A stretch of 64,000 nt of DNA from Planctomycetaceae bacterium UBA7805 (GCA_002480485.1 DLCF01000082.1:5330-69329); one strand, 5' to 3'; counted from the first letter of the stretch, positions 10,765-46,744 are shown. The notes: generated by a model not told the origin, from the sequence alone. Numbers and translations are program-made.

Positions 10765-10781
10765 CTGTTTCCGGCCGTCAA

Positions 10782-12387: not shown

Positions 12388-14304
12388 TCATCGCGCAGAG
12401 AGTGCTTTGACGCTCTCAACGAGTAAAATTACGTTTTGCACCGGAATCTGCGGGAGTATCCCATGTCCTAGGTTGAAGATGTGTCCTGCCCGCTGCGCAG
12501 CTTTTGAAAGAATGTCGCGAGCCGCTTCCCGAATGTGATCCTCTGGTGCGAGTAAAGTCATGGGGTCAAGATTTCCCATGATCCCTCGATCTTCCCCGAT
12601 TGCGGCCCAGGCCGCATCGAGTTCGATCCGCCAATCTACACCGATCACATCGCCCCCGGCCTCAGCCAGCAGAGGATAAAGTGCGGGATTGCCCGTCGCA
12701 AAATGAATCACTGGGATTCCACCCTGTAGACCTTGAATCAGCTGACGCGTGTGTGGCAATACAAATTTTCGGTAATCATCACAGCTCAAGCAACCGACCC
12801 AACTATCAAAAATCTGCACCGCTTGCACTCCCGCAGCAATCTGTGCGTTGAGATAGAGGGTAATACTTTGCACCAATCGATCCATCAAGGATTGCCAAGC
12901 GGCAGGATTGCGATACATGAGTGTTTTCGTATGTAAAAAATTACGAGAACCACCTCCTTCGATGGTGTAGCTGGCCAAAGTAAACGGCGCCCCAGCAAAG
13001 CCGATCAATGGCATCGATTCGGCCATTTGCGCCCGCGTCTGTTGCACAGTATCCATAACGTAATGAAGTGAGTCCACACTCTCCAGAGCGAGGATACGAT
13101 TCACATCTTCTCCTTCGCGAACCGGATTATGAATGATCGGTCCCTCCCCTTGCCCGTATTCGAGCTCCAATCCCATAGGCTCCAGAATTGGCAGGAGATC
13201 TGAAAAGATAATCGCGGCATCAACGTCCAATCGCTCGGCAGCGGTTATCGCAACTTCGGCGCAGAGCGACGGATTTTTGCAGAGTTCTAAAAAACCGGTC
13301 TTTGCCCGCACTTCCCGATATTCTTTCATATAGCGTCCGGCTTGTCGCATCAGCCAGATGGGTGTTCTTGGAACTGGTTCCCTACGACACGCACGAAGAA
13401 AAATACTCTGCTGCCAGGCAGGTTCCCGCTGCTGCTCGGTAACCGCTGTAAGTTGCGACGAGAGAAATTTTGAGAGCTTTTCTTTTTGTGCTTTTACGTC
13501 CGGCGCGCATCGGGTCGCAAGCGCGACAAGTTGACCCATTTTATGTGTATCCGATTCGAGATCGACCGTAATGCGACGTTCTCGTAAAAAATGACTTGTG
13601 GTCGGTCCAATCGAGGCCACCACTACGCTCTGCAAGGCTTCGTGAAGTGCATCAAGTAGACCTTGCTGTTGAGCGAGCGCAAGTAAATTATTAGCTTGGT
13701 TAGCTGACGTAAACAAAGCAACGTCGATTTTTCGATCAAGTATCGCACAAATATTTTCATTGAGTGGTGTTGTATCTATCGGTAGTTCCCAACGGTAGAT
13801 TTGCACTGGAATTACCGTGGCCCCTCGGGCCTCGAGGCCTGCGATGAGGCTCGGGTTCGTGATCCCATATTCTTGCACCCCGACATGAAGTCCTGCCAGA
13901 GGCACATATCGGTCGACCAATTGTAAAATCTCCCGCCATGTGTAAGGCGAATCCGCCTGAAAGGATGGCTTGACCCCCAACCGTCTGAGCGCAGCCACAG
14001 GTTTGGGTCCACGGGCGATGGTTTTCGTATCTGCCAAGGCGGTTAAAAAACGCTCTCGCTTGATATGCCGCTCGACAACCTGCGTTAATGTTTCGACCCC
14101 CACCCCAGTGAGCAGAATCACAACGTCAATCTCCGCGGTGATTAAGCGATGGGCAAAGTCAATTGCCTGCTTATTCTCCTCGATTGGAACCTCGCGCATA
14201 GAAGGACTAACGTGGGGAGTCCCCCCGTGCCGTTCAATGAGCCGCGCCATTTCCTCACCACGCCGGCTCTCAAAGGCAGCTATATGCAATCCAACAGTAG
14301 ACAT
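12388..14304 (-). CDS. hemE: Fusion protein: uroporphyrinogen-III synthase (HemD-like, about aa 1-265) + uroporphyrinogen decarboxylase (HemE, about aa 298-638)
   Basis: 638 aa single ORF. The C-terminal half carries the HemE signature PIWLMRQAGRYMKEYR plus FDSW and GHGI. The N-terminal half has the two-lobed HemD pattern (ILLTGVGV..., ALFTSANQANN..., ASIGPTTS). Confidence 0.8.
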   Translation of the reverse strand: MSTVGLHIAAFESRRGEEMARLIERHGGTPHVSPSMREVPIEENKQAIDFAHRLITAEIDVVILLTGVGVETLTQVVERHIKRERFLTALADTKTIARGPKPVAALRRLGVKPSFQADSPYTWREILQLVDRYVPLAGLHVGVQEYGITNPSLIAGLEARGATVIPVQIYRWELPIDTTPLNENICAILDRKIDVALFTSANQANNLLALAQQQGLLDALHEALQSVVVASIGPTTSHFLRERRITVDLESDTHKMGQLVALATRCAPDVKAQKEKLSKFLSSQLTAVTEQQREPAWQQSIFLRACRREPVPRTPIWLMRQAGRYMKEYREVRAKTGFLELCKNPSLCAEVAITAAERLDVDAAIIFSDLLPILEPMGLELEYGQGEGPIIHNPVREGEDVNRILALESVDSLHYVMDTVQQTRAQMAESMPLIGFAGAPFTLASYTIEGGGSRNFLHTKTLMYRNPAAWQSLMDRLVQSITLYLNAQIAAGVQAVQIFDSWVGCLSCDDYRKFVLPHTRQLIQGLQGGIPVIHFATGNPALYPLLAEAGGDVIGVDWRIELDAAWAAIGEDRGIMGNLDPMTLLAPEDHIREAARDILSKAAQRAGHIFNLGHGILPQIPVQNVILLVESVKALSAR

Positions 14305-22701: not shown

Positions 22702-23829
22702 TCAGTTGTTCAACGTAATTTTCTCAATACGAGTTTCTAACTCTTTGCGAATTTGCTCCGCGCAGCGTTGATATTCCGCTACCGACTCTCCGATAGGGTC
22801 GGCTACATCTTTCCCATCAAGACGTAGAACTTCTGTTCGAGACGCCGCTTCCGGCCACTGAGATAATAATGCTTCACGATGTCCACGGGTCATCGTCAGA
22901 ATCAGGTCGGCATGACGTACCATTTGCTCAGAAACAGGCTGCGCAGAATGACTTGTCAGGTCGAGATCAATTTTTTTCATCACTTCAATTCCCTGAGGTG
23001 AAGCCTGGCCACCGGCCATTGCTGCGATTCCGGCAGAGGTGATCACCACGCCGTGCTCATCAACTTCGTTGTCATTGCAACCTATTTTTTTTGCAAGAAG
23101 ATTTCTTCCTATCACTTCGCCCATCGGGCTGCGACACGTATTGCCTGTGCATATGATCAAGATCATGACACTTGATAGCCGCTTGAGATGCTGTTCAGTA
23201 ACGACTCCCGCCCTCAAAATGTCATAGCTTGTTTCATGAACTCTAACTACAGATGAGGGTTGACCGAGTCGACTTTTGCCGCCATCAAGTACCAAGTCAA
23301 TTTGGTCACCAAATGCAGACACAACCTCTTCGGCAGTGATTGCCTCTGGCTCACCGGTCTGATTCGCGCTGGTCAAAGCAACCGGCCCGGTCAACATCCG
23401 CAACACATCTAAAATCAGAGGGTGTGCAGGAACCCGGAGCCCTACGGTTCCATTCGGAACAACAGCCTGTTTCACTTTCGTCGGGAGCTGCGCGAGTAGG
23501 CTTTCTGGGTGGTTGTTCTCTGCAACGAGAGTGATGGGTCCAGGCCAACAACGTCGAGAAAGACGACGACCCATCGGGCTTAAATCAGGCGCATAGTCAA
23601 GCGCCTCCTCGGCACTACGTACGGCTAGAGTGAATGGGTGGCCTTGGCCGCGGCCTTTTGCATCAATCAGTCGATCGACGGCACCCTCATCCAGCGCGCT
23701 GGCGGCTAAACCATATACGGTTTCGGTAGGAAACGCGACCAAGCGTCCACCTGCTAGCGCTTCCACTGCTCGATGTACCACATCGCGCGGATCTTGGGTT
23801 GCCCGGGTATCTATGACCACTGGATTCAT
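22702..23829 (-). CDS. Fusion: L-threonylcarbamoyladenylate synthase domain (TsaC/YrdC/YwlC-like, aa 1-210) + low-molecular-weight phosphatase (YwlE-like, aa 221-375)
   Basis: The N-terminal part has YrdC motifs (VAFPTETVYGLAA, LTSANQTGEP). The C-terminal part has the P-loop ILIICTGNTCRSPMGE and the DP general-acid motif VADPIG. Confidence 0.85.
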   Translation of the reverse strand: MNPVVIDTRATQDPRDVVHRAVEALAGGRLVAFPTETVYGLAASALDEGAVDRLIDAKGRGQGHPFTLAVRSAEEALDYAPDLSPMGRRLSRRCWPGPITLVAENNHPESLLAQLPTKVKQAVVPNGTVGLRVPAHPLILDVLRMLTGPVALTSANQTGEPEAITAEEVVSAFGDQIDLVLDGGKSRLGQPSSVVRVHETSYDILRAGVVTEQHLKRLSSVMILIICTGNTCRSPMGEVIGRNLLAKKIGCNDNEVDEHGVVITSAGIAAMAGGQASPQGIEVMKKIDLDLTSHSAQPVSEQMVRHADLILTMTRGHREALLSQWPEAASRTEVLRLDGKDVADPIGESVAEYQRCAEQIRKELETRIEKITLNN

Positions 23830-26087: not shown

Positions 26088-27305
26088 TCAATCTAGCCAG
26101 TCTCCATCCGCCAATCGGTCAGGCACATATTGCTCAGTCACGTAGCTAATGTCTTTGCTGATGAGTGCTTCGACCTCAAGCTTGAAGTCGTTTTTCAGCA
26201 TTAAATTAATCTCCTTTTGCCACGCTTTTTTATGTTCGAACCAGGGATAACCCATAATTTGTCGCGCGCGTTTACGATCATTTTCATTGAGGTCGATCCG
26301 TACACTCGGTGATAGCCCGCAACGCTCATAGTCTTTGCTACGCAAACCAATAAATCTTGCTTTGGGTATCGCCATGCGCTGAGACTCATAGGCGAGATTA
26401 ATTGAACCTTGCTTAATAACGCTGTAGATGTAATATCCCCACGGATCATTATCGAGTAAGCAGAAGATAGGAAGATTTAATTCGTTATGCATGCGATTGA
26501 GTAGCCGCCGAACGCCCCGCGGAGGCTGCCCGGCACCATGCGTTAGAATACAGTTATGTTTTTTCCAGAATTTATCCTCGTTGAATCTCTGCCAAACTGT
26601 ACCTTTCTCCACATGCAGCACGAATTTAGCAGTGCACTTTTTGAAGTTGATCACATTTGGCTCAACGATGGACGGAATACCATATCCCCCCGATCCCATC
26701 CGCGCACAATCGATTAAATCACCGTTATCCTCCAGCGTCAGGTTACCTACCATTTCCCCGCGCTTATCTGCATAGAGATGCAACTCCTCGCGCAGACTTC
26801 CCAGCAGCACCTCAACATCTTCAATCACCGGATCACACTCAGACTGCTCTTCGAAGGTATTCTCCTTAGTACCGTCGATGGTGTGCTTCAGCATGTAGTA
26901 GAGACCACGAATACTCGTATTTTTTCCCTGCTCAATCAACTGTTTGCAACCACTTCCGACAAGCATCGTCTGCATATAACTCTTTGCTTGGGAGAGATTA
27001 AACAACAACCGACGGTTCGTATTTTTTCCCATCTCAATGAAGCGTTTTCGTCGGTTAAACTTCACGTTTGAGAGACTGCGCGTCGGAATATCCAGGTGCG
27101 GGTCCCGTTTTCGCCGCGCAGCGAGCACTACCTGATCAGCCATCGAAACCAGCTCACCCAAAGTTTTGCGATCTTTTGTTGATACCCGCGCCTTGGGTCG
27201 CTTTACTTTTGAGGATCCGGCCACCACTTTCTTGCTTGGCGCACTATTTGACGCCTTTTTCACCTTGGAATTCTTGGACCTGGTCTTCACCGGTTTCTTT
27301 GCCAT
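26088..27305 (-). CDS. top6A: DNA topoisomerase VI subunit A (Spo11/Top6A family)
   Basis: 405 aa ORF. It has the 5Y-CAP region SIRGLYYMLKH, the Toprim Glu in FVLHVEKGTVWQRF and the DxD in CLLDNDPWGYYIY. The ATG start precedes a Lys-rich N-terminal 45 aa. Confidence 0.88.
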   Translation of the reverse strand: MAKKPVKTRSKNSKVKKASNSAPSKKVVAGSSKVKRPKARVSTKDRKTLGELVSMADQVVLAARRKRDPHLDIPTRSLSNVKFNRRKRFIEMGKNTNRRLLFNLSQAKSYMQTMLVGSGCKQLIEQGKNTSIRGLYYMLKHTIDGTKENTFEEQSECDPVIEDVEVLLGSLREELHLYADKRGEMVGNLTLEDNGDLIDCARMGSGGYGIPSIVEPNVINFKKCTAKFVLHVEKGTVWQRFNEDKFWKKHNCILTHGAGQPPRGVRRLLNRMHNELNLPIFCLLDNDPWGYYIYSVIKQGSINLAYESQRMAIPKARFIGLRSKDYERCGLSPSVRIDLNENDRKRARQIMGYPWFEHKKAWQKEINLMLKNDFKLEVEALISKDISYVTEQYVPDRLADGDWLD

Positions 27306-27354
27306 CCGCTATTTCTCTCTAAACGAGGAATTTGTGATCCGAATAATACAGAAT

Positions 27355-29508
27355 TCATTTTGCCGACAACTGGTCAGCAACCTGGTTGGGATCAACAATC
27401 AACACATTTTTTCCCAGGTCAAGCTCTTCCTCGACGGGCCGCCCGCGACTGTCGAGCTTGACATCCGCTTCCGCGGTCTTTTTGGTTGCTATTTTTAAGA
27501 GTTGGTCATACAGATCCTGCCGATTGGCACGATTGATTTCACTCACCGCGCTCGCTACTTCACCCAAATAGCGAAGAAATATATTTCGACGTTCACCCTC
27601 CTGGCGAACACGAATACGGCGACGAAGGTACATGCCCAATTTTCGGCCGACCGCCTGGAGCCCCAATCGCAATTCTTTCTGAATTTCAGGATAGGACGCG
27701 ACCGCTTCTTTCGATTCACTGGTAAAAGGCACCCAGACACTTGCCATGTGAATCATTACTGTTACCGGACCACTGGGCAGAGACCCACGTGATTGACTCA
27801 GGCCATATGGTCTCCAATTCGTGTTCAAAATACTTTGCGTAATCGCACAAGCAGCCGGTTGAAACTGCAGTGGAACGCGATTGGCATACCGCAAGACGTT
27901 CATGGTTTGTCCTTCACCGATGTTTACATTGCGCATCGCGTCATGCAACGCGTCGATTTGTTTCCCGGCGATTTTCCCAGGTGAAAGTCGATTTCCCAGG
28001 TCCGCTTCTTTGAGAATGCGTTCGGACGCCTCGGAACCGATTCCATCGAATGTGTGAATTAAAAATTGTCTCAGGGTTCGCAAATCAGTTTCCGTAAGTA
28101 GCTCATTTAGGGTTTCCCTCGTGATCCGCTGCGCGGCAGTCGTACCACCATAAGCGAGGGCAACTTCAATCTGGAATGGATTTCCCCGGTAAACATTCGG
28201 CGGCCGCGTGGCCGCGGCATAAAATTCACCGGGAACCACCTGGTGCAATCCTTTCAACAGAAGCTCTTCTCCGATGGGAGCAATACAATCAGTTTTCGGC
28301 GCACTGATTTTTGTTCCCTGAATTGCTTCATACAGACGGTCAACTTCACCACGCCCGATTTTTCTTGTGCTCGACCGCACTTTGAGTCCGGCTGCGGCGC
28401 ATATTTTTTTTGCAACCGCAGGGCTGACCCGAGAAAACGAAGACGTTAAAAATTGCGAGAGCGTTCCGGCGTCTGTCGCTTTCAACAGCGCAAGTAATCT
28501 TCCTAATTCAACGCCGTAGGGATGCGGCTTGATTTCTTTCGGTTCATCAGGAAGCGTCTCCGTAGAGCGTTTATAGTGATGAGAACCGCCGTCAGGATCG
28601 AGATAGTGTAGTGTTACGTGAGGATTTGCAATTGCGGTTTGTTCAAGATATTCATCGACACTTCCTCGACCACGTTGATATTTAGCCTCGAGTTCGATTG
28701 TGACCCTTGTTCCACTTACAACTTCTTTTGCTGTAGTGTCTTCAGGATCATCGCCGGATCGGCTGACCCACTCGACACCATGCTTGGTCATCCATGTTTC
28801 TCCTTTTGGTCCGGCTGGAATATCCGCGCCGTTTCCTCGCCCATTAAGGATTTCCGGTTTATTATTTTTTGTGTCGATTTGAATTTCGTAATAATGAATT
28901 GGTTTCCGCTTGGAGGTTTTTGATGAAATTTTAACCGGCTTACCAGTCGTAAGAACTCCGTACATTCCAGCGGCACTGATGCCGATACCCTGCTGGCCAC
29001 GACTCATCCGCAGGCGATGAAATTTAGATCCGTACAGCAGCTTTCCGAAAATAAGCGGAATCTGCTTTTTGAGTATTCCCGGGCCATTATCTTGCACACC
29101 GGCTTTGTAACGGTTGTTGCCAGTCGCTTCGACGTGAACCCAGATTTCCGGTAAGATTCCCGCCTCCTCACAGGCGTCTAGTGAATTGTCCACCGCTTCC
29201 TTGATGGTGGTCAGGAGGGCTTTCCGGGGGTTGTCGAATCCCAACAGATGCCGATTTTTTGCGAAAAATTCACTGACCGAAATGTCTCGCTGACTGGCTG
29301 CCATCGATTGCGCCGTGGCGCGTCGTGACGATCGTTTACGGGCGGACGCTCCATTGGTGTTACTGCTGGCTGCAGATGCCGACCCGTTGTTCGATGAGGT
29401 CTTACGTTTTTTCTTTCGAACAGCGCCATTGGTGGCGACCCGAGAAGTTGAAGCGCTATTTTTTTTTCTTTTTGCCTTCACTTTTGCCAAGCGCCTGTCT
29501 CCTCGCAA
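27355..29508 (-). CDS. top6B: DNA topoisomerase VI subunit B (GHKL ATPase)
   Basis: SVSEFFAKNRHLLGFDNPRKALLTTIKEAVDNSLDA is the Bergerat-fold N-box region. GxxGxG-like SRGQQGIGISAAG follows. The longest ORF starts at TTG 29508. An alternative ATG at 29304 would give an archaeal-length N-terminus. Confidence 0.85.
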   Translation of the reverse strand: MRGDRRLAKVKAKRKKNSASTSRVATNGAVRKKKRKTSSNNGSASAASSNTNGASARKRSSRRATAQSMAASQRDISVSEFFAKNRHLLGFDNPRKALLTTIKEAVDNSLDACEEAGILPEIWVHVEATGNNRYKAGVQDNGPGILKKQIPLIFGKLLYGSKFHRLRMSRGQQGIGISAAGMYGVLTTGKPVKISSKTSKRKPIHYYEIQIDTKNNKPEILNGRGNGADIPAGPKGETWMTKHGVEWVSRSGDDPEDTTAKEVVSGTRVTIELEAKYQRGRGSVDEYLEQTAIANPHVTLHYLDPDGGSHHYKRSTETLPDEPKEIKPHPYGVELGRLLALLKATDAGTLSQFLTSSFSRVSPAVAKKICAAAGLKVRSSTRKIGRGEVDRLYEAIQGTKISAPKTDCIAPIGEELLLKGLHQVVPGEFYAAATRPPNVYRGNPFQIEVALAYGGTTAAQRITRETLNELLTETDLRTLRQFLIHTFDGIGSEASERILKEADLGNRLSPGKIAGKQIDALHDAMRNVNIGEGQTMNVLRYANRVPLQFQPAACAITQSILNTNWRPYGLSQSRGSLPSGPVTVMIHMASVWVPFTSESKEAVASYPEIQKELRLGLQAVGRKLGMYLRRRIRVRQEGERRNIFLRYLGEVASAVSEINRANRQDLYDQLLKIATKKTAEADVKLDSRGRPVEEELDLGKNVLIVDPNQVADQLSAK

Positions 29509-30257: not shown

Positions 30258-30710
30258 GTGATAGGAAATGAGGATATGAAGTCTACCGCCGCTCTACTCA
30301 TCTTTTTTTGGGCCGGTTTATGTGTTGCTCAAGCACCAAGTGAATTAAGTTCGGTGCCGGGGTGCCCGACGTGCCAGAGCGGCACATGCCTGCCGACCAG
30401 CGGGGCGTACTGGGCGAACTATGGTCATTGCGGACGAAAGTGTCAGACAGCCCTGAGTTATCCCTGGCAGTGCGGCTATTACTACACGCCTTGGGGTGCC
30501 CCAACGACCTTGGTTGTTCCGCCGACCGCCGAGCGACAGTACAGTATGGGCTGGGGCGTTGGAAATACGCGCCTCACACGCATTTATCCGCAGTTCGGCA
30601 GGCCTTATCCGGGTGCAGTCATGGGGCCTGGTGGGCGATTTCTTGCGACCCCATACTGGCCCAGCGATACGGCCCAATTCGGCGTTAATTATGTGCGTGG
30701 TCCGTGGTAG
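30258..30710 (+). CDS. Small secreted protein, Cys/Trp/Tyr/Gly-rich
   Basis: 150 aa ORF. The signal peptide is KSTAALLIFFWAGLCVAQA, so the start may be the ATG at 30276. An N-terminal Cys cluster reads GCPTCQSGTC...HCGRKC...QCGYYYTPWG. Confidence 0.55.
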   Translation: MIGNEDMKSTAALLIFFWAGLCVAQAPSELSSVPGCPTCQSGTCLPTSGAYWANYGHCGRKCQTALSYPWQCGYYYTPWGAPTTLVVPPTAERQYSMGWGVGNTRLTRIYPQFGRPYPGAVMGPGGRFLATPYWPSDTAQFGVNYVRGPW

Positions 30711-30736: not shown

Positions 30737-33286
30737 CTATTGCCTTTCGGCTTCAGTCTCAGTGCATGTGGCCAATAACGTTTCGAAACGTTCTCGCCAA
30801 AGATCACCCCCTAGTTCGGGATAGAGCACTTGCGTGGTTCGGATTGTCTGCGCGGCCATCCTCACGTTGCCAAGCAGCATTCGCGCCTTGGCTTCTCCAT
30901 ATTTAGCGGCGAACCACTGTTCGGTTTGCGGACGGGAGCGCCTAGTGATCTCTCGATATTTACTTAGTGCTTCTCGTCGAGATGTGGCGTCACTTTGCTC
31001 AAGAAGTAAATCCGCGTACCGTGATTGAATTTTCCCGTCTCCCGAATATTCAGCCGCCAATTTACGGAGCAGAGTCAAAGCCTCTTTCGTCTTACCAAGC
31101 AGGGCAAGCGTTTCGGCTTGTATTAACGTCAGTTGCTTTTTCTCGGGATATGCAGAAAAATCACCCAGAATTTGAAAACACGCCATATTGATCTTTGCCC
31201 GTGTATCAAACGTTTGGTTTGGATCATTTTGGTTACCATTCCGAACCTTAATCTTATGTATATTCAATATCAGATTAATGATGTCTTGAGTGTCACCCGT
31301 GAATGCCTTAAGTACATCAAGCGCTTGCCCGAAACGTCCCAATCCCACCAAGCATTCCACCTGAAGTGCATGAAGCCGCGCATGATTTTTCCGATCATCC
31401 TGAGCAATACTCCCCAGTCCCTGCTTGATCAGTTCGAGTACACCACGATATGGAATCGGTGAATAGTGCATCTGCAGTGCCGCGGCGTCGGCGACCACCG
31501 AGGCCGCCATCGGGCTGCCGGCATTGATAAGCCTCTCGGCGGCATCGCGCATGGATTGAGTCAATGCAGTTGACCGTTTGCTCAACTGGGGATCATTTTT
31601 TTCTGCTAAATCGGCACAATTTCTGAGGCAGCATGTTCCCGCAATTCGGATTGCCTCCGGGTAGACCAAACTACTCGGATCGATTTCAAATAGAATTTCA
31701 CTTGCAGAAGACCATTTTTTTTCGGCGGCTAGCATGCGGCCTAACCAGAGTCGTGCTCGATTCGAAGAGTTATCCGTGGGCCATCGTCGAAGGTGATCCC
31801 TCAATAACTCTTGGTATGGTGAAAACGCTTCCGGTGGACTCCCTTTCAAAGCTTGAGCAATATTGTAAGCGGCCATTAGATGCGCTTCTGCGGCGCCTGA
31901 TTCTTGGGGATAGGTGATCGCGATGCGCCTCAATTTTTTACTTGCCGCCCGATAGTTTTGAATTTCGTATTGGATCATTGCGGATTTAAGGTAAAGCTCA
32001 AACGCTTTCGCGAGGTCTTTTTGATTGTCCGCCTTTCTCGCCGCTTCATCATAGATTCTAGCGGACTCGGTAAATTGTCCTGCTTGATAAAGCCCCTCCG
32101 CGGCCCTCTCTAACAACGCATATCCATGTTGCGATGGGTCAATAGTCATTTGACGTCCGAAGAGTGCTCGTGCTCGCTGCAACCAATACGGATCGTGGAG
32201 ATTCTCAATCAACTCAAGTTGACTTTCAGCACGCGCGTTCCAGTTTTTGGTGTTTTCTATTTTCTCGTTACTAGCAGCTTGAAGCATGACTTGCAGTTCA
32301 CAGAAATCAACTTCCGCCTCCACCTCTGGGCTGTAATTCACCGGTTGATTCAATGCCTTGAGTGCGTCGAGATAACGCCCACTTGCACTGAATTGTCTGG
32401 CCAATTCCAGGCAAATTTGACCTCGCACATCGACCGGTAGATTTTCTGATAGATAGGAGTCTTTCAGTTGCTGAAAAAGATTTTGATCTTTTTTACCTCC
32501 AAGTAATCTTAGACAGGCTAATCGCGAAACTCGGCTATCCCAATCGATGGGGTCATTTTTTGCAGCGAGAGGGGAAAGGATCTCCTTGGCTTGTTGCAGG
32601 GCATGGATGCGATCAGAGCTCCCTGCTTGATAACAGCGTGCCTGCTCCATCCAGCTCTGGGATAAATCTTTTTCTGCCGCCGTTTGGAGACGAAGCAAAG
32701 CACTGTTCGGTAACCGGTTTTCCACAGAAGAGTGCAGAGCCTTATTAATTTTTTTAAGAGTCTTTTCAGCAGTCTTTTGAGCATGCTGCAAATACCGAAT
32801 TGACTCTTTTCTCTTTGGCTTCGGATCCAAGACCCCCGCACTGAGCTGCCGGATGAATTTTCCACGTAGTAGCGCAACGTGTGCGCGTTGCCTCCATACC
32901 ATTGGGTCCAAAACGTTCTCTGGATTATCTTCAAGCCAACGCTCTAAAACATTTTCAGCTTGTTTCCAATGTGCGACACTGGATTGTGGGGAGCATTGCC
33001 TTGCCCAAGCGGTATAGGCACGTGATAAATCCACCACCGTATTAACGCGTGATATGGGATCGAGGGTGTTGACCGCGAGACGTTCCTCGCAAGCTAAAAC
33101 TGCTAGGGGGAAAAGTCGTCTATCCAAGAGTCCGTCGATGAACTTCTCTTCGGCCGCCTGTTGATCTTCCGTTACTAGGGCAGGGCAGTCATTCGGCAGA
33201 ACAGCAACCGACCCCACTGCGATAAACGTGGTGAGCAATCCGATATAGGCGGTGTGCAACGGGGATCTGCTGAATTTTAACGGCAT
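30737..33286 (-). CDS. Large TPR-repeat protein (secreted or periplasmic)
   Basis: All-helical, with repeated A/L/Y TPR-like 34-mers throughout. The start is refined to the ATG at 33284-33286 (MPLKFSRSPLHTAYIGLLTTFIAVGSVAV), which removes the overlap with exbD. The ORF track's maximum is 33457. Confidence 0.7.
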   Translation of the reverse strand: MPLKFSRSPLHTAYIGLLTTFIAVGSVAVLPNDCPALVTEDQQAAEEKFIDGLLDRRLFPLAVLACEERLAVNTLDPISRVNTVVDLSRAYTAWARQCSPQSSVAHWKQAENVLERWLEDNPENVLDPMVWRQRAHVALLRGKFIRQLSAGVLDPKPKRKESIRYLQHAQKTAEKTLKKINKALHSSVENRLPNSALLRLQTAAEKDLSQSWMEQARCYQAGSSDRIHALQQAKEILSPLAAKNDPIDWDSRVSRLACLRLLGGKKDQNLFQQLKDSYLSENLPVDVRGQICLELARQFSASGRYLDALKALNQPVNYSPEVEAEVDFCELQVMLQAASNEKIENTKNWNARAESQLELIENLHDPYWLQRARALFGRQMTIDPSQHGYALLERAAEGLYQAGQFTESARIYDEAARKADNQKDLAKAFELYLKSAMIQYEIQNYRAASKKLRRIAITYPQESGAAEAHLMAAYNIAQALKGSPPEAFSPYQELLRDHLRRWPTDNSSNRARLWLGRMLAAEKKWSSASEILFEIDPSSLVYPEAIRIAGTCCLRNCADLAEKNDPQLSKRSTALTQSMRDAAERLINAGSPMAASVVADAAALQMHYSPIPYRGVLELIKQGLGSIAQDDRKNHARLHALQVECLVGLGRFGQALDVLKAFTGDTQDIINLILNIHKIKVRNGNQNDPNQTFDTRAKINMACFQILGDFSAYPEKKQLTLIQAETLALLGKTKEALTLLRKLAAEYSGDGKIQSRYADLLLEQSDATSRREALSKYREITRRSRPQTEQWFAAKYGEAKARMLLGNVRMAAQTIRTTQVLYPELGGDLWRERFETLLATCTETEAERQ

Positions 33287-33350
33287 AGATTGAAGCGCCT
33301 CTATTTTGATGCTAAGTGTTTTATGGGCATCAACCACAATTCCCATCTTA

Positions 33351-33809
33351 TCATTTGGCGAAAGACGCATCCGCAGCAAATTGAATTTGGGAAAACCCAA
33401 CTTTACGCCCCAAATCGTAAGTGTAGATCGCATCACCCAGAGGCACGTCTGGACCAATGTCGAGGATCAATGGGACCCCCGAATTAATCTTTGAAAGTGC
33501 CAGAAGCTTTCGCTCAACGGTTTGTAATTGCGCACATGGTTGCCCGTTGATGCTCCAGGTCGGAGCGCCGAGTGACCACCTGATACGAATCAGCACCGGA
33601 TCCATTTCTTCAGTCATATCAGATGTCTCTACGATTTCGGTGCCCGGGGGTAATTCGAGTTGAATGCGACTCGGAAGATTTTGCTCCACAATCTGAAAAC
33701 TCGCTGTGCAGATGAAAAAAATTAGCAATAAGAACACCACGTCAATCATTGGTGTCATCGTGACATCCCGGCGCTTCTCCGCTTGCTTATTGAAATCAGG
33801 AATCCGCAT
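33351..33809 (-). CDS. exbD: ExbD/TolR family biopolymer transport protein (copy 2)
   Basis: MTPMIDVVFLLLIFFI is a TM helix with the conserved Asp. 152 aa. Confidence 0.85.
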   Translation of the reverse strand: MRIPDFNKQAEKRRDVTMTPMIDVVFLLLIFFICTASFQIVEQNLPSRIQLELPPGTEIVETSDMTEEMDPVLIRIRWSLGAPTWSINGQPCAQLQTVERKLLALSKINSGVPLILDIGPDVPLGDAIYTYDLGRKVGFSQIQFAADASFAK

Positions 33810-33859
33810 CAGTTTGCTGTTTTTGTTATCCGCACATAAATTGCGATGGACGTGGGCTG

Positions 33860-34300
33860 TTAATTTAGATCATCGATAGGCCGGATTACCGCGAATTGCA
33901 CATTCCAAATATCCAACTCTGCACAACTCACCAGGATGGGCTCGATCGCCCTGTAGGGAATGGAGCGATCTCCTCGAATACGCACTTCGAGCTTCCCCTG
34001 AGCTCGTTTCAATTCGCTCTGCAACTGTGTCCTCAGTTTCGCAGGCGGCACAATGCGTGATCCGAAGGAAATTTGAAAACCAGACTGCCGAGATGAAATA
34101 TTAACAGTCAGTGTTCTGTTATCGGCCTGAACATTTTCATCTCCGGTTTCTGCGGCCGGCAGGTCGAGCTCGGCGTGCGCTTCCTGTTTTTGAAGATGAC
34201 TGGAAACAAGAAAAAAGATGATCAACAAAAAGACTACATCAATCATCGGTGTCATGTTCATTTCCAATCGGCCACCACGATTGCTCAGAGGAACACGCAT
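33860..34300 (-). CDS. exbD: ExbD/TolR family biopolymer transport protein (copy 1)
   Basis: MTPMIDVVFLLIIFFLV is a TM helix with the conserved Asp. 146 aa. Confidence 0.85.
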   Translation of the reverse strand: MRVPLSNRGGRLEMNMTPMIDVVFLLIIFFLVSSHLQKQEAHAELDLPAAETGDENVQADNRTLTVNISSRQSGFQISFGSRIVPPAKLRTQLQSELKRAQGKLEVRIRGDRSIPYRAIEPILVSCAELDIWNVQFAVIRPIDDLN

Positions 34301-34321
34301 AAAAAATTCCGAATACGATTT

Positions 34322-35140
34322 TTACGTTTGCGTTGGTGGCGGATTTGAAGCACTCGTACTCGCAGCTTGCTTTCGTTGATTGCGTCGACGTTTCAGTGGC
34401 AAAAACACCTGTTGTGCCAAGTGCGATCCGTCCGCAACCAATTGATCAATGTGATTGCGAAAGATTGCGAATGCGGCCAGGGCGGGAATCGCCACTAACA
34501 GCCCTCCGACGGTGGTAACAAGTGCCTGATAAATTCCGGTGGCAAGATCTGCAGCCCGCGCGCTGCCTTCTGTGCTTGCCACTTCCTGGAAGGCAAAGAT
34601 CATTCCAAAAACTGTACCCAACAGCCCGACCATCGGCGCAATATTCGCAATCACCGACAAATATTCTATTTTTCTCAGCAGCTTGGCCGCCTGTTCTGCC
34701 GTCGCATCCTCCATGGCTTTTTCAACTGCACTCCATCCACTTTCGGCCTCTGTGATTCCTGCCTGCAACACAACGCTCAAGAAGCTCGGTTTCGCTTTGC
34801 ACGCGGCATTTGCTCCACTCACATCACCTGCCACAAGACACCGTTGCACGTCTCCGGCAAGTCCTGTCGGAAGAAGAATATTTCGCCGGAGAGATAATAA
34901 GTGCTCGATAATGAGGGCTACAAGGCTGATAGAAAGACCAAGCAGTAGCATGACAATCAGAAATCCGGTTACACCGCCTGAAAAAACGATCTCAAAAAAT
35001 CCATCCTGCCCCCGCATCGCTTCGGCCTCTCTGTCAGATGTGCTATCAGCGGCGATTGCGTTCGTCCATAACACTAGATGAAGTGAGGCGGCAAAGAGAA
35101 ACCGCCCTCCAGTCATAAAAACGTCATGCATAATTATCAT
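34322..35140 (-). CDS. exbB: MotA/TolQ/ExbB proton-channel family protein with an N-terminal signal peptide and extension
   Basis: The C-terminal MotA_ExbB core reads LSVIANIAPMVGLLGTVFGMIFAF...ATGIYQALVTTVGGLLVAIPA. 272 aa. Confidence 0.85.
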   Translation of the reverse strand: MIIMHDVFMTGGRFLFAASLHLVLWTNAIAADSTSDREAEAMRGQDGFFEIVFSGGVTGFLIVMLLLGLSISLVALIIEHLLSLRRNILLPTGLAGDVQRCLVAGDVSGANAACKAKPSFLSVVLQAGITEAESGWSAVEKAMEDATAEQAAKLLRKIEYLSVIANIAPMVGLLGTVFGMIFAFQEVASTEGSARAADLATGIYQALVTTVGGLLVAIPALAAFAIFRNHIDQLVADGSHLAQQVFLPLKRRRNQRKQAASTSASNPPPTQT

Positions 35141-35150
35141 TTTAGGGCAC

Positions 35151-36302
35151 TTAGTCGAGGTCTTCTTTTCTTTGCTTGGCCTCGGCCGCTGCCGTGCTTT
35201 GAGGATAAGTGTTGATCAGTTCGGTATAAATTTTTTTTGCCTCGGTTGGAAGGCGAGCTTCAACGCTTACTTTCCAAGCCGTGAGTAATGCCTCGGCGGC
35301 AAGGTTTGGGTTAGCATCATCAAGAATTGCCACGCGCATCGCAGCGACCGCGGCCTTACGATTCTCTCCGGTGCGCTCGTAAAGCCTGCTCAAAATATAA
35401 TAGGGCCCCCCCTGTAGCGACAGGGGAAGTTGTTCGACTGTTTTGCGACATAGCTCAATCTTATCCGCCGAGGCATATGGTAACTGCGTGCGCAACCATT
35501 GAGCCCTGGCGAGTGCATTGAGGGGTGGTATTGCTGTCTCGGCTAAGTTGAGAAGTACGCGTTCGGCCTGTTGTGATTTTCGAGTTCCCAGGAGCAGACT
35601 ACTTCCAAGAAGTTGGGCTATCGGCCTTGCTAGATCCTCCATCCACGCCACGGCAGTCGCTTCCGCTTGGGGAGATGGAGTGAATCCCCCGGCCCAGATC
35701 AATGGAATGCAATGCATATATGGAGTTCCCGGATCTTTGTGGAATAATTGTAGAAATGCCTTGCTCGCTTGAAAGTGTTTCCCGTCCGCTCGTAGTGCCA
35801 GAACCAACTCCGAACGGATTTCACATTGCACCCAATTGCGATCTTCGGCCCCACTTTCCAGAAGGCGGTAATAGTTGCTTGCAGCTTTTTCAAACTGCCC
35901 CGCTTTGGTTGCCAGCCGTGCCGCCCGCTGCGCGGGTGTACGCTGAGAGTCAATGCGTATCACCTGCTCGGCGGGAATCACCCGTTTTTGCCCACTTGTC
36001 AACATGATCGTCAAACCTTGGCCGTTGAAATCAACGATTGTTCCTTTCAACTGTCGCACCTGCTGCTGCCGGTAGTGCACCGTATCGCTCGCTACGATAT
36101 CTGCCGATGCAAAACCACCAAAGTGGCCGATTACAAAAGCCATTATCAGCAGGTACATAATCCATTTGATCGTCGGCCTGCATCGGTGGAATGTATACCA
36201 GATGATAATAAGTATCACTCCAAAAAAATTAGTCTGCTGCATTGGTTGGGCTGAGTCGATCGGTATTAAAGAATAGATATTCGCCTCCATTCTCTCTTGC
36301 AA
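35151..36302 (-). CDS. Membrane-anchored or secreted helical-repeat (TPR-like) protein
   Basis: 383 aa maximal ORF that overlaps the vWA gene end. Likely starts are ATG 36242 or ATG 36158 (MYLLIMAFVIGHFGGFASA). The C-terminal two thirds are helical and TPR-like. Confidence 0.6.
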   Translation of the reverse strand: MQERMEANIYSLIPIDSAQPMQQTNFFGVILIIIWYTFHRCRPTIKWIMYLLIMAFVIGHFGGFASADIVASDTVHYRQQQVRQLKGTIVDFNGQGLTIMLTSGQKRVIPAEQVIRIDSQRTPAQRAARLATKAGQFEKAASNYYRLLESGAEDRNWVQCEIRSELVLALRADGKHFQASKAFLQLFHKDPGTPYMHCIPLIWAGGFTPSPQAEATAVAWMEDLARPIAQLLGSSLLLGTRKSQQAERVLLNLAETAIPPLNALARAQWLRTQLPYASADKIELCRKTVEQLPLSLQGGPYYILSRLYERTGENRKAAVAAMRVAILDDANPNLAAEALLTAWKVSVEARLPTEAKKIYTELINTYPQSTAAAEAKQRKEDLD

Positions 36303-37221
36303 TTTTCTTTAGCCAATTATCTCCCACTTCGACATCGCTGCCGAATTGAATGACGTTGATTGTCGCGCGCCCTTTATTTCGCCGTCGTATGCGCGCAAGG
36401 TCTGAATTACTGAGGCTTGGTTCAGTTCCGTCGGTAAGAAAAAAAATACAATCGCCATTGAGCGCGATGGCTTTCAATAATGGATCCAAATGACGAGTTG
36501 CCCCATTGGCAGCAATTTTCCGCAGGTACTCATCGGCCGCTGATTTATTTTTTTCACTCGCAAAAAAGAGTTTTCCGGAAAAGTTTTTATCCTGTGAGGG
36601 ATGAAAAATGTCTAAAAATTCGTTGTAGAAAATAATTTCAAATTGGTTCAATTTTCCAAGATCCTGAAGGCTATTTGTGATCTCACGCTTGGCCGCCTCC
36701 AGGGGACGACCCTCCATGCTTCCGGATCGATCAAAGAGATAAACGAATTTATTTCCGACACCGGTGACGCCGAATACTCCTGTTCTCACCTTTCCACCGT
36801 CGATATTTCTGAGACCATCCCCCTTTCCTTCCAATCCCAGTCGACCTCCGCTATCGTTGTTGGCCACAGCAGGGCCGACACCCGCCGCGGGGTCCGGTAG
36901 AAAGGCGCTGGTGTCCAACGGGGATTCTCCCGCTCCAGGCAGTGCGGCAAAACTGTTCCCGCTCTCGGTGGCACTCGCCATATCGGTAGCTACCGAGATC
37001 TCGGAGTCTTCACCTTCGTAGTATTCCCCTTGCGATGTGACCCGCTTCAGCACAATTCCGGTTGTCCGATCCGGTTCGGTAACCACACCTGGGGGTATAG
37101 AACGAATTCCAATCACTAACAGGATCAAGAGCAAGCCATGAAAGACCATGGATGTAAACCACGCTGGCAGCATGTGTCGGAGTGCCTTCCGGTCGTCCGA
37201 AAGGGGACGCTGATTATGCAT
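36229..37221 (-). CDS. vWA-domain protein with a TonB-like N-terminal signal anchor
   Basis: ATG start. The single TM is LPAWFTSMVFHGLLLILLVIG (S24-x3-H28-G). A disordered linker of about 120 aa rich in P/G/A/S/E follows. The vWA domain has the MIDAS motif VYLFDRSGSMEG (D164-x-S-x-S). Confidence 0.75.
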   Translation of the reverse strand: MHNQRPLSDDRKALRHMLPAWFTSMVFHGLLLILLVIGIRSIPPGVVTEPDRTTGIVLKRVTSQGEYYEGEDSEISVATDMASATESGNSFAALPGAGESPLDTSAFLPDPAAGVGPAVANNDSGGRLGLEGKGDGLRNIDGGKVRTGVFGVTGVGNKFVYLFDRSGSMEGRPLEAAKREITNSLQDLGKLNQFEIIFYNEFLDIFHPSQDKNFSGKLFFASEKNKSAADEYLRKIAANGATRHLDPLLKAIALNGDCIFFLTDGTEPSLSNSDLARIRRRNKGRATINVIQFGSDVEVGDNWLKKIARENGGEYLFFNTDRLSPTNAAD

Positions 37222-43750: not shown

Positions 43751-46744
43751 TTAGGAGCAACCCATACTGTTGCCACAATTATGACAAAGATGGCAATTTC
43801 CGTTTCGAACGGTTATGGATCCACAGTTATCACAACTTGGAGCATCAAGCTCAAAGCTTGTAAATTGCTTCTTTAAAGCTGCTGTCGCATCCAATTCGAG
43901 GGGTTTGAACTGATCCTCAGAGATACGAGAGGAATGGCTGTGATGTCCGTTTGTGTGGGTATGCCCATTACCATTGGTATGCGACGGGTTGAGGGCGGAG
44001 TGCTTGGTCTTTTCTTTCACTCCCTGATTTTGTTCTTGCCCGTCACCCTTCCTGGTGACGGGCGAGGTAGCCGTTTCCTCATCCCCCGCCTTCTCAGAGG
44101 AAGCGTTTTTGGGAGGAATACCAAGATTCAATTCGCGAAAACCGGGGATAAACTGACAACCCATCCAGCGGAAGATATAGTCGACTAGGCTCTTGGCGTA
44201 CCTGATATCTGGATTTTTCGTGAAGCCCATGGGGTCAAATCGGGTGTGTGAAAACTTATTGACCAACACCTCCATAGGCACTCCGTATTGAAGACTCATG
44301 GAGACCGCTGTCCCGAAGGAGTCCATCAGCCCACCAATGGTACTTCCCTCTTTTGCCATCGTGATAAAGACCTCGCCAGGTCGTCCATCTTCATATAGAC
44401 CCACATTCAAATAACCCTCATGTCCGTCGACACTGAATTTGTGAGTTACTGATTGTCGGGTGTCGGGCAACCGCTCCCGTCTAGGTTTCGTTACCTGTTT
44501 CTTTTCGGCTTTGTCACCCTCCGTAGCCGTTGAAAGCGGCTGACTCTGTTTTGAGCCGTCTCGATAGATGGCGAGGGCTTTTAGTCCCAGACGCCAACCC
44601 CAGGTGTATGCTTCAGCCACATCGTCAACGGAGGTTGTCGCTGGCATGTTTACCGTCTTTGAGATCGCTCCCGAGAGGAAGGGCTGTGCGGCAGCCATCA
44701 TCTTCACATGAGCTTTCCAGTCAATTGATCGACCACCACCAGAGGGTTCAAATGCACAGTCGAAGACAGGAAGATCCTTGTCTTTAATCTCCGGAGCCCC
44801 CTCAAGCTTGTCGTTTGCATCAATATATGCCGTGATTGACTCAATCTGCGGCTGATCATAACCAAGTTTTTCCAATGACTGAGGAACCGACTTATTCAGG
44901 ATCTTCAGCATTCCACCGCCCGCCAGTTGCTTATATTTCACCAGGGCAATGTCGGGCTCGATACCTGTTGTATCGCAATCCATAAGGAAACTGATTGTTC
45001 CAGTCGGCGCCAGTACGGTTGCCTGTGCGTTTCGGAAACCGTGCTTCGTTCCATCGTGAATTACGTCTTCCCACACGCTACGTGCCGCAGTTTGCAAGGT
45101 ATCAGGACAGGCCGGATTAATCTGGTCGACCGCCTCCTTGTGCATTTGCATGACCCGCAACATTTCCTCGCGATTGGATTCAAATCCTTCAAACGCTCCG
45201 ACCGCTGAAGCCAACTCGGCACTTGTCCGGTTTGCTGCTCCATGGAGTAGTGCAGTGATGGCACCACAAATCCCGTAGCCGGCATCCGAGTCGTATGCAT
45301 GGCCCGAGGTCATTAGCAGACTTCCTAGGTTCGAATAGCCCAACCCCAGTGGACGGTAGCGGTGACTATTTGCCGCAATTACTGCAGTCGGATAGCTAGC
45401 GTGATCCACAAGAATTTCCTGAGCGACGAAGAAAATGCGACACGCTTGGGTGAATCGATCGGCGTCGAAGGATCCATCTGGCTTGCACATTTTCATCAGA
45501 TTAATACTAGCAAGGTTGCACGCCGTATCGTCGAGGAACATATACTCGCTGCAGGGATTGCTTGCATTAATGCGACCCGAATTAGGGCAGGTATGCCAGC
45601 GATTAATAGTGGTATCGTACTGCACTCCCGGATCACCGCACTTCCAAGCCATCTCAGACATCTTCTGCATGATTTCTCTGGCCTGGTAGGTCGGACCATG
45701 TTTCTGGGAATCAGTCACCCAACGCGTTTTCCATTCCCCATCTTCCACAACCGCATTCATAAAATCATCGGTGACTCGAACCGAGAGATTCGCATTTTGA
45801 AACATGATTGAGCTGTACGCTTCACCATTGAAATTTGATTCGTAGCCACCCTTCTCGATTAAGCAATGCGCTTTTGCTTCCTCTTTAGCCTTACACTCAA
45901 TGAAATCCATAATGTCTGGGTGCCAAACTTTGAGCGACTGCATCTTGGCAGCTCTCCGGGTTTTACCGCCACTCTTGACCACGCCGGCGATCTGGTCATA
46001 TACCCGCATGAACGACAGCGGGCCGGAGGGCCGTCCGCCACCGGCTAGTTTTTCCCGATGAGAGCGGAGTGTCGAAAGATCAGTCCCGGTACCGCTGCCG
46101 AATTTGAAAAGCATAGCCTCACTGGTGGCTAGCGCCATGATGGCTTCCATGTTGTCTGTAACGCTTTGGATGAAGCATGCCGAACCTTGAGGGTATTTGT
46201 AAGGATTGTCAGGCTGTCGCACACTGCTCGACTCGGCATCCCAATGCCAGTTGCACTGAGCACCGGTGACTCCGTATTGGTGGTACAGACCCACGTTGAA
46301 CCAAACCGGCGAGTTGAACGCTCCGTGTTGGTGCAGGCAAAGCCAAGATAGTTCACGATAAAACTGTTCACCATCTTCAGGAGAGGCGAAATATCCGTCT
46401 TGCAGACCCCAATCCGTTATCGTTCGGCTAACACGGTGGATCAATTGCCGAACGCTATTCTCTCGCTCGGTTGTGCCGACCTCACCATAAAAATACTTAC
46501 TAACCACAATGTTTGTGGCCAACTGACTCCAGTCAGCAGGAATCTCGCAGTTGTCCTGCTCAAAGAGCAATTCCCCGCCTTCACCCTTGATCTCTGCACT
46601 ACGTTTTTCCCATTCAACGGTGTCGAAAGGATCGGCAGCATCGACCGGACAGAAGTAAGGTTGAAAAGAAAGTCCGTTCGTCGTTTCCGGGGTTTTTGAA
46701 TCCATCAGATTTTTTGCGGAAACGTCCACGTCGACAGTAGCCAT
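43751..46744 (-). CDS. nrdJ: Class II (adenosylcobalamin-dependent) ribonucleotide reductase
   Basis: 997 aa ORF. It has RNR core motifs (NPCSEYMFLDDTACNLASINL, the active-site Cys/Asn/Glu region) and a monomeric-type long form. The C-terminal Cys cluster is CDNCGS...CHLCHNCG. Confidence 0.88.
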   Translation of the reverse strand: MATVDVDVSAKNLMDSKTPETTNGLSFQPYFCPVDAADPFDTVEWEKRSAEIKGEGGELLFEQDNCEIPADWSQLATNIVVSKYFYGEVGTTERENSVRQLIHRVSRTITDWGLQDGYFASPEDGEQFYRELSWLCLHQHGAFNSPVWFNVGLYHQYGVTGAQCNWHWDAESSSVRQPDNPYKYPQGSACFIQSVTDNMEAIMALATSEAMLFKFGSGTGTDLSTLRSHREKLAGGGRPSGPLSFMRVYDQIAGVVKSGGKTRRAAKMQSLKVWHPDIMDFIECKAKEEAKAHCLIEKGGYESNFNGEAYSSIMFQNANLSVRVTDDFMNAVVEDGEWKTRWVTDSQKHGPTYQAREIMQKMSEMAWKCGDPGVQYDTTINRWHTCPNSGRINASNPCSEYMFLDDTACNLASINLMKMCKPDGSFDADRFTQACRIFFVAQEILVDHASYPTAVIAANSHRYRPLGLGYSNLGSLLMTSGHAYDSDAGYGICGAITALLHGAANRTSAELASAVGAFEGFESNREEMLRVMQMHKEAVDQINPACPDTLQTAARSVWEDVIHDGTKHGFRNAQATVLAPTGTISFLMDCDTTGIEPDIALVKYKQLAGGGMLKILNKSVPQSLEKLGYDQPQIESITAYIDANDKLEGAPEIKDKDLPVFDCAFEPSGGGRSIDWKAHVKMMAAAQPFLSGAISKTVNMPATTSVDDVAEAYTWGWRLGLKALAIYRDGSKQSQPLSTATEGDKAEKKQVTKPRRERLPDTRQSVTHKFSVDGHEGYLNVGLYEDGRPGEVFITMAKEGSTIGGLMDSFGTAVSMSLQYGVPMEVLVNKFSHTRFDPMGFTKNPDIRYAKSLVDYIFRWMGCQFIPGFRELNLGIPPKNASSEKAGDEETATSPVTRKGDGQEQNQGVKEKTKHSALNPSHTNGNGHTHTNGHHSHSSRISEDQFKPLELDATAALKKQFTSFELDAPSCDNCGSITVRNGNCHLCHNCGNSMGCS

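Follow-up and report, generated by a model that had tools for sequence, protein, structure and literature searches.

A probable proton-driven envelope motor with a von Willebrand factor A output arm encoded in a planctomycete genome

Organization of the locus

The window analyzed here was a stretch of 64,000 nucleotides from Planctomycetaceae bacterium UBA7805 (GCA_002480485.1 DLCF01000082.1:5330-69329), and all positions were counted from its first letter. Six open reading frames (ORFs) on its minus strand, located within positions 30737-37221, probably encode a trans-envelope machine that is driven by the proton-motive force and has a von Willebrand factor type A (vWA) domain on its output arm. 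Arranged head to tail, they specify a membrane-anchored vWA protein, a 383-residue helical-repeat protein (termed "H383"), an ExbB/TolQ-like protein (hereafter ExbB), two ExbD/TolR-like subunits (ExbD1 and ExbD2), and a large tetratricopeptide-repeat (TPR) protein, in that order (Table 1).

The spacing was 10 nt between H383 and ExbB, 21 nt between ExbB and ExbD1, 50 nt between ExbD1 and ExbD2, and ca. 64 nt between ExbD2 and the TPR gene. The ORFs for the vWA protein and H383 either overlap or abut, depending on the start codons that are chosen. Gene callers differed on several of these starts. For H383, the candidates were 36302, 36290 (379 aa), and the Met of the signal peptide at 36158 (ca. 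335 aa). For the large TPR gene, the most likely start is 33286, which is also the start annotated publicly on identical contigs from Tara Oceans. A preliminary description, made from this sequence alone, had listed six co-directional, tightly packed minus-strand genes, including a 383-aa helical-repeat protein overlapping or abutting the vWA gene and a TPR protein of about 850 aa. All of the ORFs were found at those places; H383 was modeled as a TPR-like solenoid, and the TPR protein was 849 aa long from the Met at 33286 and matched the TPR_19 family. Scans for promoters and terminators gave results no better than those from shuffled sequence. On the opposite strand, a 150-aa ORF runs convergently toward the 3' end of the TPR gene; it had no Pfam match and may not be a real gene.

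Table 1. Positions of the cluster genes, of motifs in the vWA protein, and of other features in the window
Feature	Position	Strand	Description
vWA protein (force-transducer candidate)	36229-37221	-	330 aa (alternative start, 314 aa; gene callers differ); short cytoplasmic N-terminus, one transmembrane helix, disordered linker, C-terminal vWA domain with metal-ion-dependent adhesion site
Transmembrane helix, residues 17-40	37102-37173	-	MLPAWFTSMVFHGLLLILLVIGIR; S24-x3-H28-x6-L35; coordinates verified by translation
G55-I-V-L58 segment	37048-37059	-	ca. 15 residues past the transmembrane helix
Leu108-Pro109	36895-36900	-	linker; consensus ..AGVLP..
vWA domain, residues 140-325	36247-36804	-	complete metal-ion-dependent adhesion site, including T242 and D264
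D164-R-S166-G-S168	36718-36732	-	first part of the metal-ion-dependent adhesion site
H383	35151-36302	-	383 aa as ORF; predicted periplasmic scaffold; signal peptide, small five-stranded beta domain, 14-helix TPR-like solenoid
ExbB/TolQ-like protein	34322-35140	-	272 aa; starts of other callers give 269 or 231 aa
ExbD/TolR-like subunit 1 (ExbD1)	33860-34300	-	146 aa
ExbD/TolR-like subunit 2 (ExbD2)	33351-33809	-	152 aa
Large TPR protein	30737-33286	-	849 aa from Met 33286; longest ORF reaches 33457 (906 aa); predicted periplasmic; N-terminal signal or anchor sequence
150-aa ORF	30258-30710	+	signal peptide; rich in Cys, Gly, Pro, Tyr and Trp
Topoisomerase VI A and B	26088-29508	-	TOP6A/Spo11 Toprim (2.3e-60); Topo-VIb transducer (1.3e-50)
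Planctomycete-typical cluster	1346-12200	-	five tightly packed genes: DUF1501, PSCyt1-PSCyt2-PSD1, 976-aa WD40 beta-propeller, Big_2-PSCyt2-PSD1, DUF1501
HemD-HemE	12388-14304	-	638 aa; apparent fusion of uroporphyrinogen-III synthase and uroporphyrinogen decarboxylase
Sua5/YrdC-phosphatase	22702-23829	-	375 aa; apparent fusion with a low-molecular-weight phosphotyrosine phosphatase

The vWA protein

The AlphaFold model of the vWA protein featured a transmembrane (TM) helix (residues 17-40), a disordered stretch (residues 41-137), and a vWA fold (residues 140-325) in which the predicted local distance difference test score (pLDDT) exceeded 90. Because the basic residues R11, K12, and R15 precede the TM helix, the vWA domain is predicted to be periplasmic. 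Motif conservation was scored in alignments of 26, and then of ca. 117, homologues. In the TM helix, S24 was retained in 111 of 112 sequences, H28 in all 115, and L35 in 82 of 117; the positions flanking S24 and H28 varied freely among hydrophobic residues. There is no Asp in this helix. The pattern S-x3-H-x6-L coincides with the first three of the four positions of the SHLS motif, which is where TonB and TolA bind their motors (PMC12204202; PMC10907165). This motif had been missed by the preliminary description, and it is the strongest evidence that the vWA protein has an output role.

Two further segments were conserved between the helix and the vWA domain. Each position of the G55-I-V-L58 segment was kept in 97-104 of the 117 homologues. 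The ExbD-binding D-box of TonB has the sequence QPISVTMVTPAD (PMC10907165), and GIVL is found at the matching position. By analogy, GIVL is a candidate "motor box", i.e. a D-box-like strand that could be captured by the periplasmic domains of ExbD. The second segment was a Leu-Pro pair (Leu in 114 and Pro in 115 of the 117 homologues) that was near-invariant inside an otherwise variable, disordered linker of ca. 80-100 residues. It was also kept in a sub-clade that has no adjacent motor genes (see below), and it may be a peptide on which the TPR proteins dock. No description of this Leu-Pro motif was found in the accessible part of PMC12204202.

The C-terminal domain was compared to known structures. 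Pfam models for vWA domains matched the protein only below their cut-offs (E of ca. 3e-4). A Foldseek search of the PDB with the domain returned ITIH1 (9e-13), ITIH4, the alpha2delta subunit of CaV channels, and CLCA1, all of which are vWA domains of the type that carries a metal-ion-dependent adhesion site (MIDAS); a profile search with the protein also matched ITIH4 (1.4e-13). The MIDAS residues D164, S166, S168, T242, and D264 were each present in 117 of 117 homologues. The membrane-anchored vWA head with a complete MIDAS (DRSGS) that had been proposed at the outset is thus borne out by the fold (AlphaFold and Foldseek) and by the invariance of the MIDAS. The same proposal held the vWA protein to be the motor's output subunit. 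Judged by sequence features, namely the S-x3-H helix, the GIVL segment, the linker, the vWA fold, and the synteny, it is the best candidate for the force-transmitting subunit.

The motor subunits

ExbB was matched by the Pfam family MotA_ExbB (E = 2.6e-27), and a sequence search of the PDB returned both ExbB and TolQ. Among the NCBIfam models, that for TolQ gave 80 bits (cut-off, 221) and that for ExbB gave 50 bits; both are below the cut-offs. The protein has an N-terminal extension that resembles a signal peptide, and the Thr motifs of TM2 and TM3 (LLGTV and ALVTTVGGL) are present, which we take to be like those of E. coli ExbB.

ExbD1 was matched by the Pfam ExbD family (E = 2.7e-21) and by the NCBIfam TolR model (1.8e-13), and its matches in the PDB sequence search were TolR and ExbD. 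The NCBIfam scores for the ExbD-type subunit were 51 bits for TolR (cut-off, 127) versus 28 bits for ExbD, far below the curated cut-offs. For ExbD2, the Pfam match was weaker (E = 1.7e-16), the NCBIfam models covered the TM region only, and the periplasmic domain was divergent. Both subunits carry the sequence MTPMIDVVF with the TM Asp. The parts of the motor are intact, as had been proposed: ExbB keeps the MotA_ExbB core, and the TM Asp is present in both ExbDs.

Across the loci examined below, ExbD1 and ExbD2 formed separate orthologous series. Cross-matches between the two were weak (E of 1e-5 to 1e-10) and mostly confined to the N-terminal third; the best few extended over ca. 130 residues at 26-31% identity. 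Two orthologous series fit a heterodimer, and the sequences suggest that ExbD1 and ExbD2 probably form one.

Zorya-type anti-phage defence systems are also built around a MotA/ExbB-like motor, and ExbB did match the MotA/ExbB core of ZorA weakly (E = 2.6e-5) when the cluster was searched with PADLOC. That was the only match; the other five proteins had none. There is no nuclease, helicase, or long ZorA tail domain, and throughout an order-level clade the cluster keeps the same chromosomal site next to def and fmt, unlike a defence island. A defence function was rejected on these grounds, and its probability is negligible.

The TPR proteins

The structure of H383 was predicted with a pLDDT of 90 and a predicted template-modeling score of 0.86. 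Foldseek returned only generic TPR matches for this model, and the Pfam and NCBIfam searches gave weak matches to TPR and YbgF/CpoB-like families. A weak Foldseek match (7e-4) to a chain of the Campylobacter flagellar periplasmic scaffold (9hmf_K) was treated as TPR-to-TPR noise. The large TPR protein was matched by TPR_19 (3.6e-7), TPR_14 (5e-5), and a YbgF-like TPR model (8.6e-8, below its cut-off), and no relative was found in the PDB sequence search. Signal-peptide-like N-termini recurred among the homologues of ExbB, H383, and the large TPR protein.

In three loci, the counterparts of H383 and the large TPR protein were fused into a single ORF of ca. 1,160 aa (L065:8976-12464, L074:9006-12482, and L075:7065-10547), which argues that both proteins act together. 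The ExbB and ExbD genes were absent from these three loci. The possibility that one of the TPR proteins harbors a cryptic TonB or TolA domain was also considered and was rejected: the Pfam and NCBIfam searches (E<=1) of both proteins, the Foldseek search with H383, and the PDB search with the large TPR protein yielded generic TPR matches only.

Distribution and synteny

Relatives of the vWA protein were sought in a scan that used one genome per species. At least 539 loci were found, all of them in Planctomycetota; the hosts include Pirellulaceae, Thermoguttaceae, Lacipirellulaceae, Blastopirellula marina DSM 3645, Bremerella, and Bythopirellula. The vWA family comprised 233 word-indexed homologues, and 1,556 clusters at 50% identity were obtained at E<=1e-30. 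A word-limited search seeded with the Polystyrenella protein returned Polystyrenella, Caulifigura, and Blastopirellula, with no named match from Planctopirus or Gemmata.

For the analysis of synteny, the six window proteins were compared by tblastn to the best 80 of the at least 539 loci, in which the genes occurred in the same order and on the same strand. Arrangements were counted in the 52 loci that had at least 7 kb of downstream DNA. All six genes were present in order in 24 of the 52; the large TPR gene was not adjacent in 10, H383 was missing from 4, no motor genes were adjacent in 11, and 3 had other partial arrangements. Motor genes thus adjoined the vWA gene in 41 of the 52 loci, and the large TPR gene was adjacent in 35. 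Where enough DNA was available, H383 followed the vWA gene (53 of 65 loci). Median identities to the window proteins were 39% for the vWA protein, 31% for H383, 58% for ExbB, 48% and 42% for the two ExbDs, and 27% for the TPR protein. Because a one-strand order recurs in dozens of genomes in which the vWA proteins are only 36-41% identical, this conservation of gene arrangement, as read from sequence, is far beyond chance. The gene set thus recurs in related genomes, a point that the preliminary description had put forward for checking. Two culturable carriers were noted: Blastopirellula marina DSM 3645 (locus L010) has the full cluster, and Polystyrenella longa Pla110 has a reduced set that consists of the vWA protein, H383, ExbB, and one ExbD.

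An all-against-all clustering of the ORFs in the 80 loci revealed no conserved partner beyond the six genes; the only other recurring neighbours were def, fmt, and miaB. In some loci, other genes were inserted between H383 and ExbB. In L005 (10174-12043) and L009 (10310-11805), these resembled genes for a leucine-rich-repeat lipoprotein and a secreted methyltransferase, and the cluster was otherwise intact; in L003 and L011, an IS200-like transposase gene was found there. Such inserts, among others, were regarded as unrelated cargo and were rejected as members of the cluster.

A sub-clade of five loci (L026, L060, L072, L077, and L079; vWA gene at ca. 8001-9000) had one or more TPR genes directly after the vWA gene and no motor genes. 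The S-x3-H helix and the Leu-Pro pair were kept in this sub-clade, with GISLE or TGLE replacing GIVL.

The loci without adjacent motor genes, about a fifth of the 52, raise the question of whether the motor and the vWA protein belong together at all. The vWA and TPR proteins could constitute a complex like that of the Bat (aerotolerance-type) proteins, and the neighbouring ExbB-ExbD could serve a TonB that is encoded elsewhere. Proteins of the vWA and TPR types also occur together in Bat operons, some members of the present family stand alone, and the window covers 64 kb of the genome, so TonB could lie outside it. What this reading has difficulty explaining is the conserved Ser and His in the TM helix, which match the TonB/TolA motif and persist even where the motor is unlinked. 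Moreover, the gene order is conserved with gaps of 10-50 nt. The vWA protein and the scanned window ORFs gave no match to the N-terminal domain of BatA, to the MoxR ATPase (AAA_3), or to DUF58, and the neighbours are def and topoisomerase VI; membership in a Bat operon, which the preliminary description had named as a contrary outcome, was therefore ruled out. An association of the vWA and motor genes by proximity alone is very unlikely.

Search for Ton and Tol partners

The six proteins were searched with the Pfam and NCBIfam models for TonB_C, TolA, TolB, Pal/OmpA, and the TonB-dependent receptor and its Plug domain, and none was detected at E<=1. The remaining ORFs of at least 200 aa in the window were scanned at E<=1e-3 or 1e-5, except for four, among them 43751-46744 (a ribonucleotide reductase when read by eye) and two at 61892-63539; the neighbours of 10782-12200 were also set aside. 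None of the same domains was found in the ORFs thus scanned. These results agree with the earlier proposal that no TonB C-terminal domain, TolA, TolB, Pal, or receptor accompanies the motor, and they extend it to a cryptic TonB_C or TolA domain in the 383-aa and TPR proteins, for which the search at E<=1 was likewise negative. The cluster was accordingly not assigned to the Ton system, as its C-terminal domain has a vWA fold and TonB_C was absent at E<=1, or to the Tol-Pal system, as TolA domain III, TolB, and Pal were absent from the cluster and from the scanned window ORFs.

The other scanned ORFs were planctomycete hallmark genes (DUF1501 and PSCyt/PSD1) and housekeeping genes. In the planctomycete-typical cluster of five genes, two DUF1501/PSD1 pairs stand on either side of the WD40 protein. 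The six-gene cluster itself has def and topoisomerase VI as neighbours. The latter, an archaeal/eukaryotic-type enzyme that is uncommon in bacteria, is encoded directly downstream.

Carbonyl cyanide m-chlorophenyl hydrazone (CCCP) abolishes the uptake of dextran and green fluorescent protein into the periplasm of Gemmata and Planctopirus, and the machinery for this is not known (PMC5394234; PMC12673574). The vWA arm could pull on a component of the outer membrane or the surface and so supply the energy with which polysaccharides or proteins are taken up into the periplasm of planctomycetes. The architecture parallels that of TonB, and no TonB_C domain or TonB-dependent receptor was found in the six proteins or the scanned window ORFs. 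On the other hand, no gene for cargo binding, a glycoside hydrolase, or an outer-membrane pore was linked to the cluster in any locus, the genes that recur beside it being def, fmt, and miaB. The named matches were from Pirellulales, Polystyrenella, and Caulifigura; Gemmata and Planctopirus, the only genera with uptake data, were not named in the word-limited search. Sensitivity to CCCP is also not specific to the motor encoded in the window. An import function is thus rather unlikely. A broader version, in which the six-gene module would replace both Ton and Tol in Pirellulales, and in which the motor, by a MIDAS-carboxylate bond, would pull on a surface or outer-membrane partner that both TPR proteins hold as periplasmic scaffolds and would thereby power the CCCP-sensitive uptake of macromolecules, is a little less likely still.

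Comparison with known systems

The preliminary description had not recognized the arrangement as a described system. That view did not hold, as force transducers of this kind had been proposed in 2025 (PMC12204202; Mol Biol Evol 2025;42:msaf138, [quoted passage not shown]). In that computation-only study, vWA force transducers are defined (Fig. 4a/b; seed, Tichowtungia aerotolerans) as proteins tethered to the inner membrane whose SHLS helix is followed by a motor box, a linker of ca. 100 residues, and a C-terminal vWA domain. They are assigned to Proteobacteria, Planctomycetes, Verrucomicrobia, Bacteroidetes, and Rhodothermaeota, and in bacteria of the Planctomycetes-Verrucomicrobia-Chlamydiae group, including Planctomycetes, they are encoded beside TPR, tolQ-like, and paired tolR-like genes. 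In an AlphaFold 3 model of a homologous set, the conserved His is the residue through which the transducer helix binds at the motor's edge (PMC12204202).

The window cluster is likely a member of this class, which was itself proposed from sequence and structure prediction. It shares the TM helix with Ser and His, the disordered linker with a conserved segment, the vWA C-terminus, and the TPR and motor neighbours. It differs in that the vWA gene comes first, whereas those in the paper are often "downstream"; in that it encodes a pair of distinct TPR proteins, fused in some genomes, of which one has a small beta domain; and in that the vWA protein lacks the last Ser of SHLS and has the Leu-Pro pair in its linker. 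A second group in the same paper (Fig. 4c/d), the TPH-vWA/TolQ-only proteins, also features a membrane-tethered vWA protein beside a TolQ-like gene. In that group, an ExbD-like helix with an Asp and without the Ser and His replaces TolR/ExbD (PMC12204202). The window protein has a helix that bears the Ser and His and lacks an Asp, and it is accompanied by two ExbDs; membership in the TPH-vWA/TolQ-only group was therefore ruled out.

Resemblances to the Ton system include an ExbB/ExbD motor with the TM Asp, the S-x3-H-x6-L helix, a conserved segment at the position of the D-box, and a linker of ca. 100 residues. In contrast to Ton, there is no TonB_C domain, and there is no TonB-dependent receptor among the scanned ORFs of the 64-kb window. 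The cluster has two distinct ExbDs as well as TPR partners, and its vWA head with a MIDAS is predicted to coordinate a partner through a metal rather than to add a beta-strand to a Ton box. The Tol-Pal system is approached in other respects: the motor scores higher against TolQ/TolR than against ExbB/ExbD, the helix is of the SHLS type, there are weak CpoB/YbgF-like TPR matches, and the locus appears to be of a housekeeping kind. Nevertheless, TolA domain III, TolB, and Pal are missing, the Tol scores are far under the cut-offs, and CpoB is far smaller than either TPR protein.

In the Agl-Glt system of Myxococcus, the vWA/MIDAS adhesin CglB is coupled in function to a TolQR-like proton motor (PMC12204202). 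By comparison to CglB, the machine might instead drive adhesion to surfaces or gliding, as was suggested in the same paper, and vWA/MIDAS domains are indeed adhesion modules. The parallel is limited, however. In Myxococcus, the vWA protein exists as a lipoprotein of its own in the outer membrane, to which force is passed by the TonB-like GltG and GltJ and by many Glt proteins; in the window, vWA domain and motor-binding helix belong to one polypeptide, and no Glt-like genes are nearby or among the scanned ORFs. As modeled, a vWA domain that is anchored in the inner membrane on a linker of ca. 100 residues could hardly reach past the outer membrane. The window belongs to an uncultured marine planctomycete of a planktonic lineage, as the Tara Oceans contigs show. 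Many Pirellulales do attach to surfaces; gliding is not a known trait of the order. A role in adhesion or gliding is accordingly regarded as improbable.

Proposed mechanism and role

The reading that we favor is that of a force transducer coupled to a proton-driven motor. The sequences show the domain content, the conservation of the motifs, and the synteny; from these and from the analogy with TonB and TolA, we infer the contacts, the pairing of the ExbDs, and the direction of force as follows. In the inner membrane, the ExbB/TolQ-like protein would form a stator of the 5:2 type with a heterodimer of ExbD1 and ExbD2, and protons would pass via the TM Asp. The TM helix of the vWA protein would dock by way of S24, H28, and L35 on the outside of the ExbB ring, as do those of TonB and TolA. 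Just outside the membrane, the GIVL segment would probably be gripped by the periplasmic domains of the ExbDs, and the flexible linker would span the periplasm. The vWA domain would then grip a partner through the MIDAS metal; the most likely point of contact is an acidic side chain on a protein located in or close to the outer membrane. H383 and the large TPR protein may serve this machine as scaffolds or adaptors in the periplasm.

A Tol-like housekeeping task in the envelope, such as linking or positioning components of the outer membrane or the wall, is put forward tentatively as the role of this machine. It is suggested because the module is widely conserved beside housekeeping genes, because the motor leans toward TolQ/TolR, and because the phylum is reported to lack Pal; the latter statement, that there is no Pal in Planctomycetes, comes from the supplement of PMC12204202.

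Several observations weigh against the mechanism or the role as formulated. In addition to the 11 loci in which no motor genes stand beside the vWA gene, genomes of the Caulifigura type have the vWA gene alone; these solitary members keep the S-x3-H motif in the helix. The final Ser of SHLS is absent from the vWA helix, and the fourth position is hydrophobic. The GIVL segment departs from the alternating pattern of the TonB D-box, and in the monomer model it does not adopt a strand. PMC12204202 states that deletion phenotypes have not been reported for vWA transducers. Finally, the matches to TolQ, TolR, and YbgF are all far under the curated cut-offs, and the Tol-like role is argued indirectly.

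Proteins of similar types are known from Rhodopirellula baltica. RB7557, a 327-aa vWA protein that matches the window family in size, responds to all three stresses that were studied, and exbB and exbD (RB12053 and RB12055) are induced by high salinity (PMC2754498).

Significance

Proton-driven motors of the 5:2 type are known to power flagella, TonB-dependent import, the maintenance of the envelope by Tol-Pal, and gliding. The vWA transducer class is still a prediction. To the published sketch of this class, the present analysis adds motif statistics for ca. 117 planctomycetal proteins, the Leu-Pro pair as a second conserved motif in the linker, an architecture with two TPR proteins and their fusion, a motor-less sub-clade, and culturable carriers, namely Blastopirellula marina DSM 3645 with the full cluster and Polystyrenella longa Pla110 with the reduced one. 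If an output arm that ends in a vWA domain with a MIDAS is real, it would represent a different way of gripping a load, by a metal-coordinated bond as opposed to beta-strand addition. In the Planctomycetes, from which Pal is reported to be absent and in which macromolecules are taken up in an energy-dependent manner, a conserved motor of this kind would be an obvious candidate for the missing envelope function.

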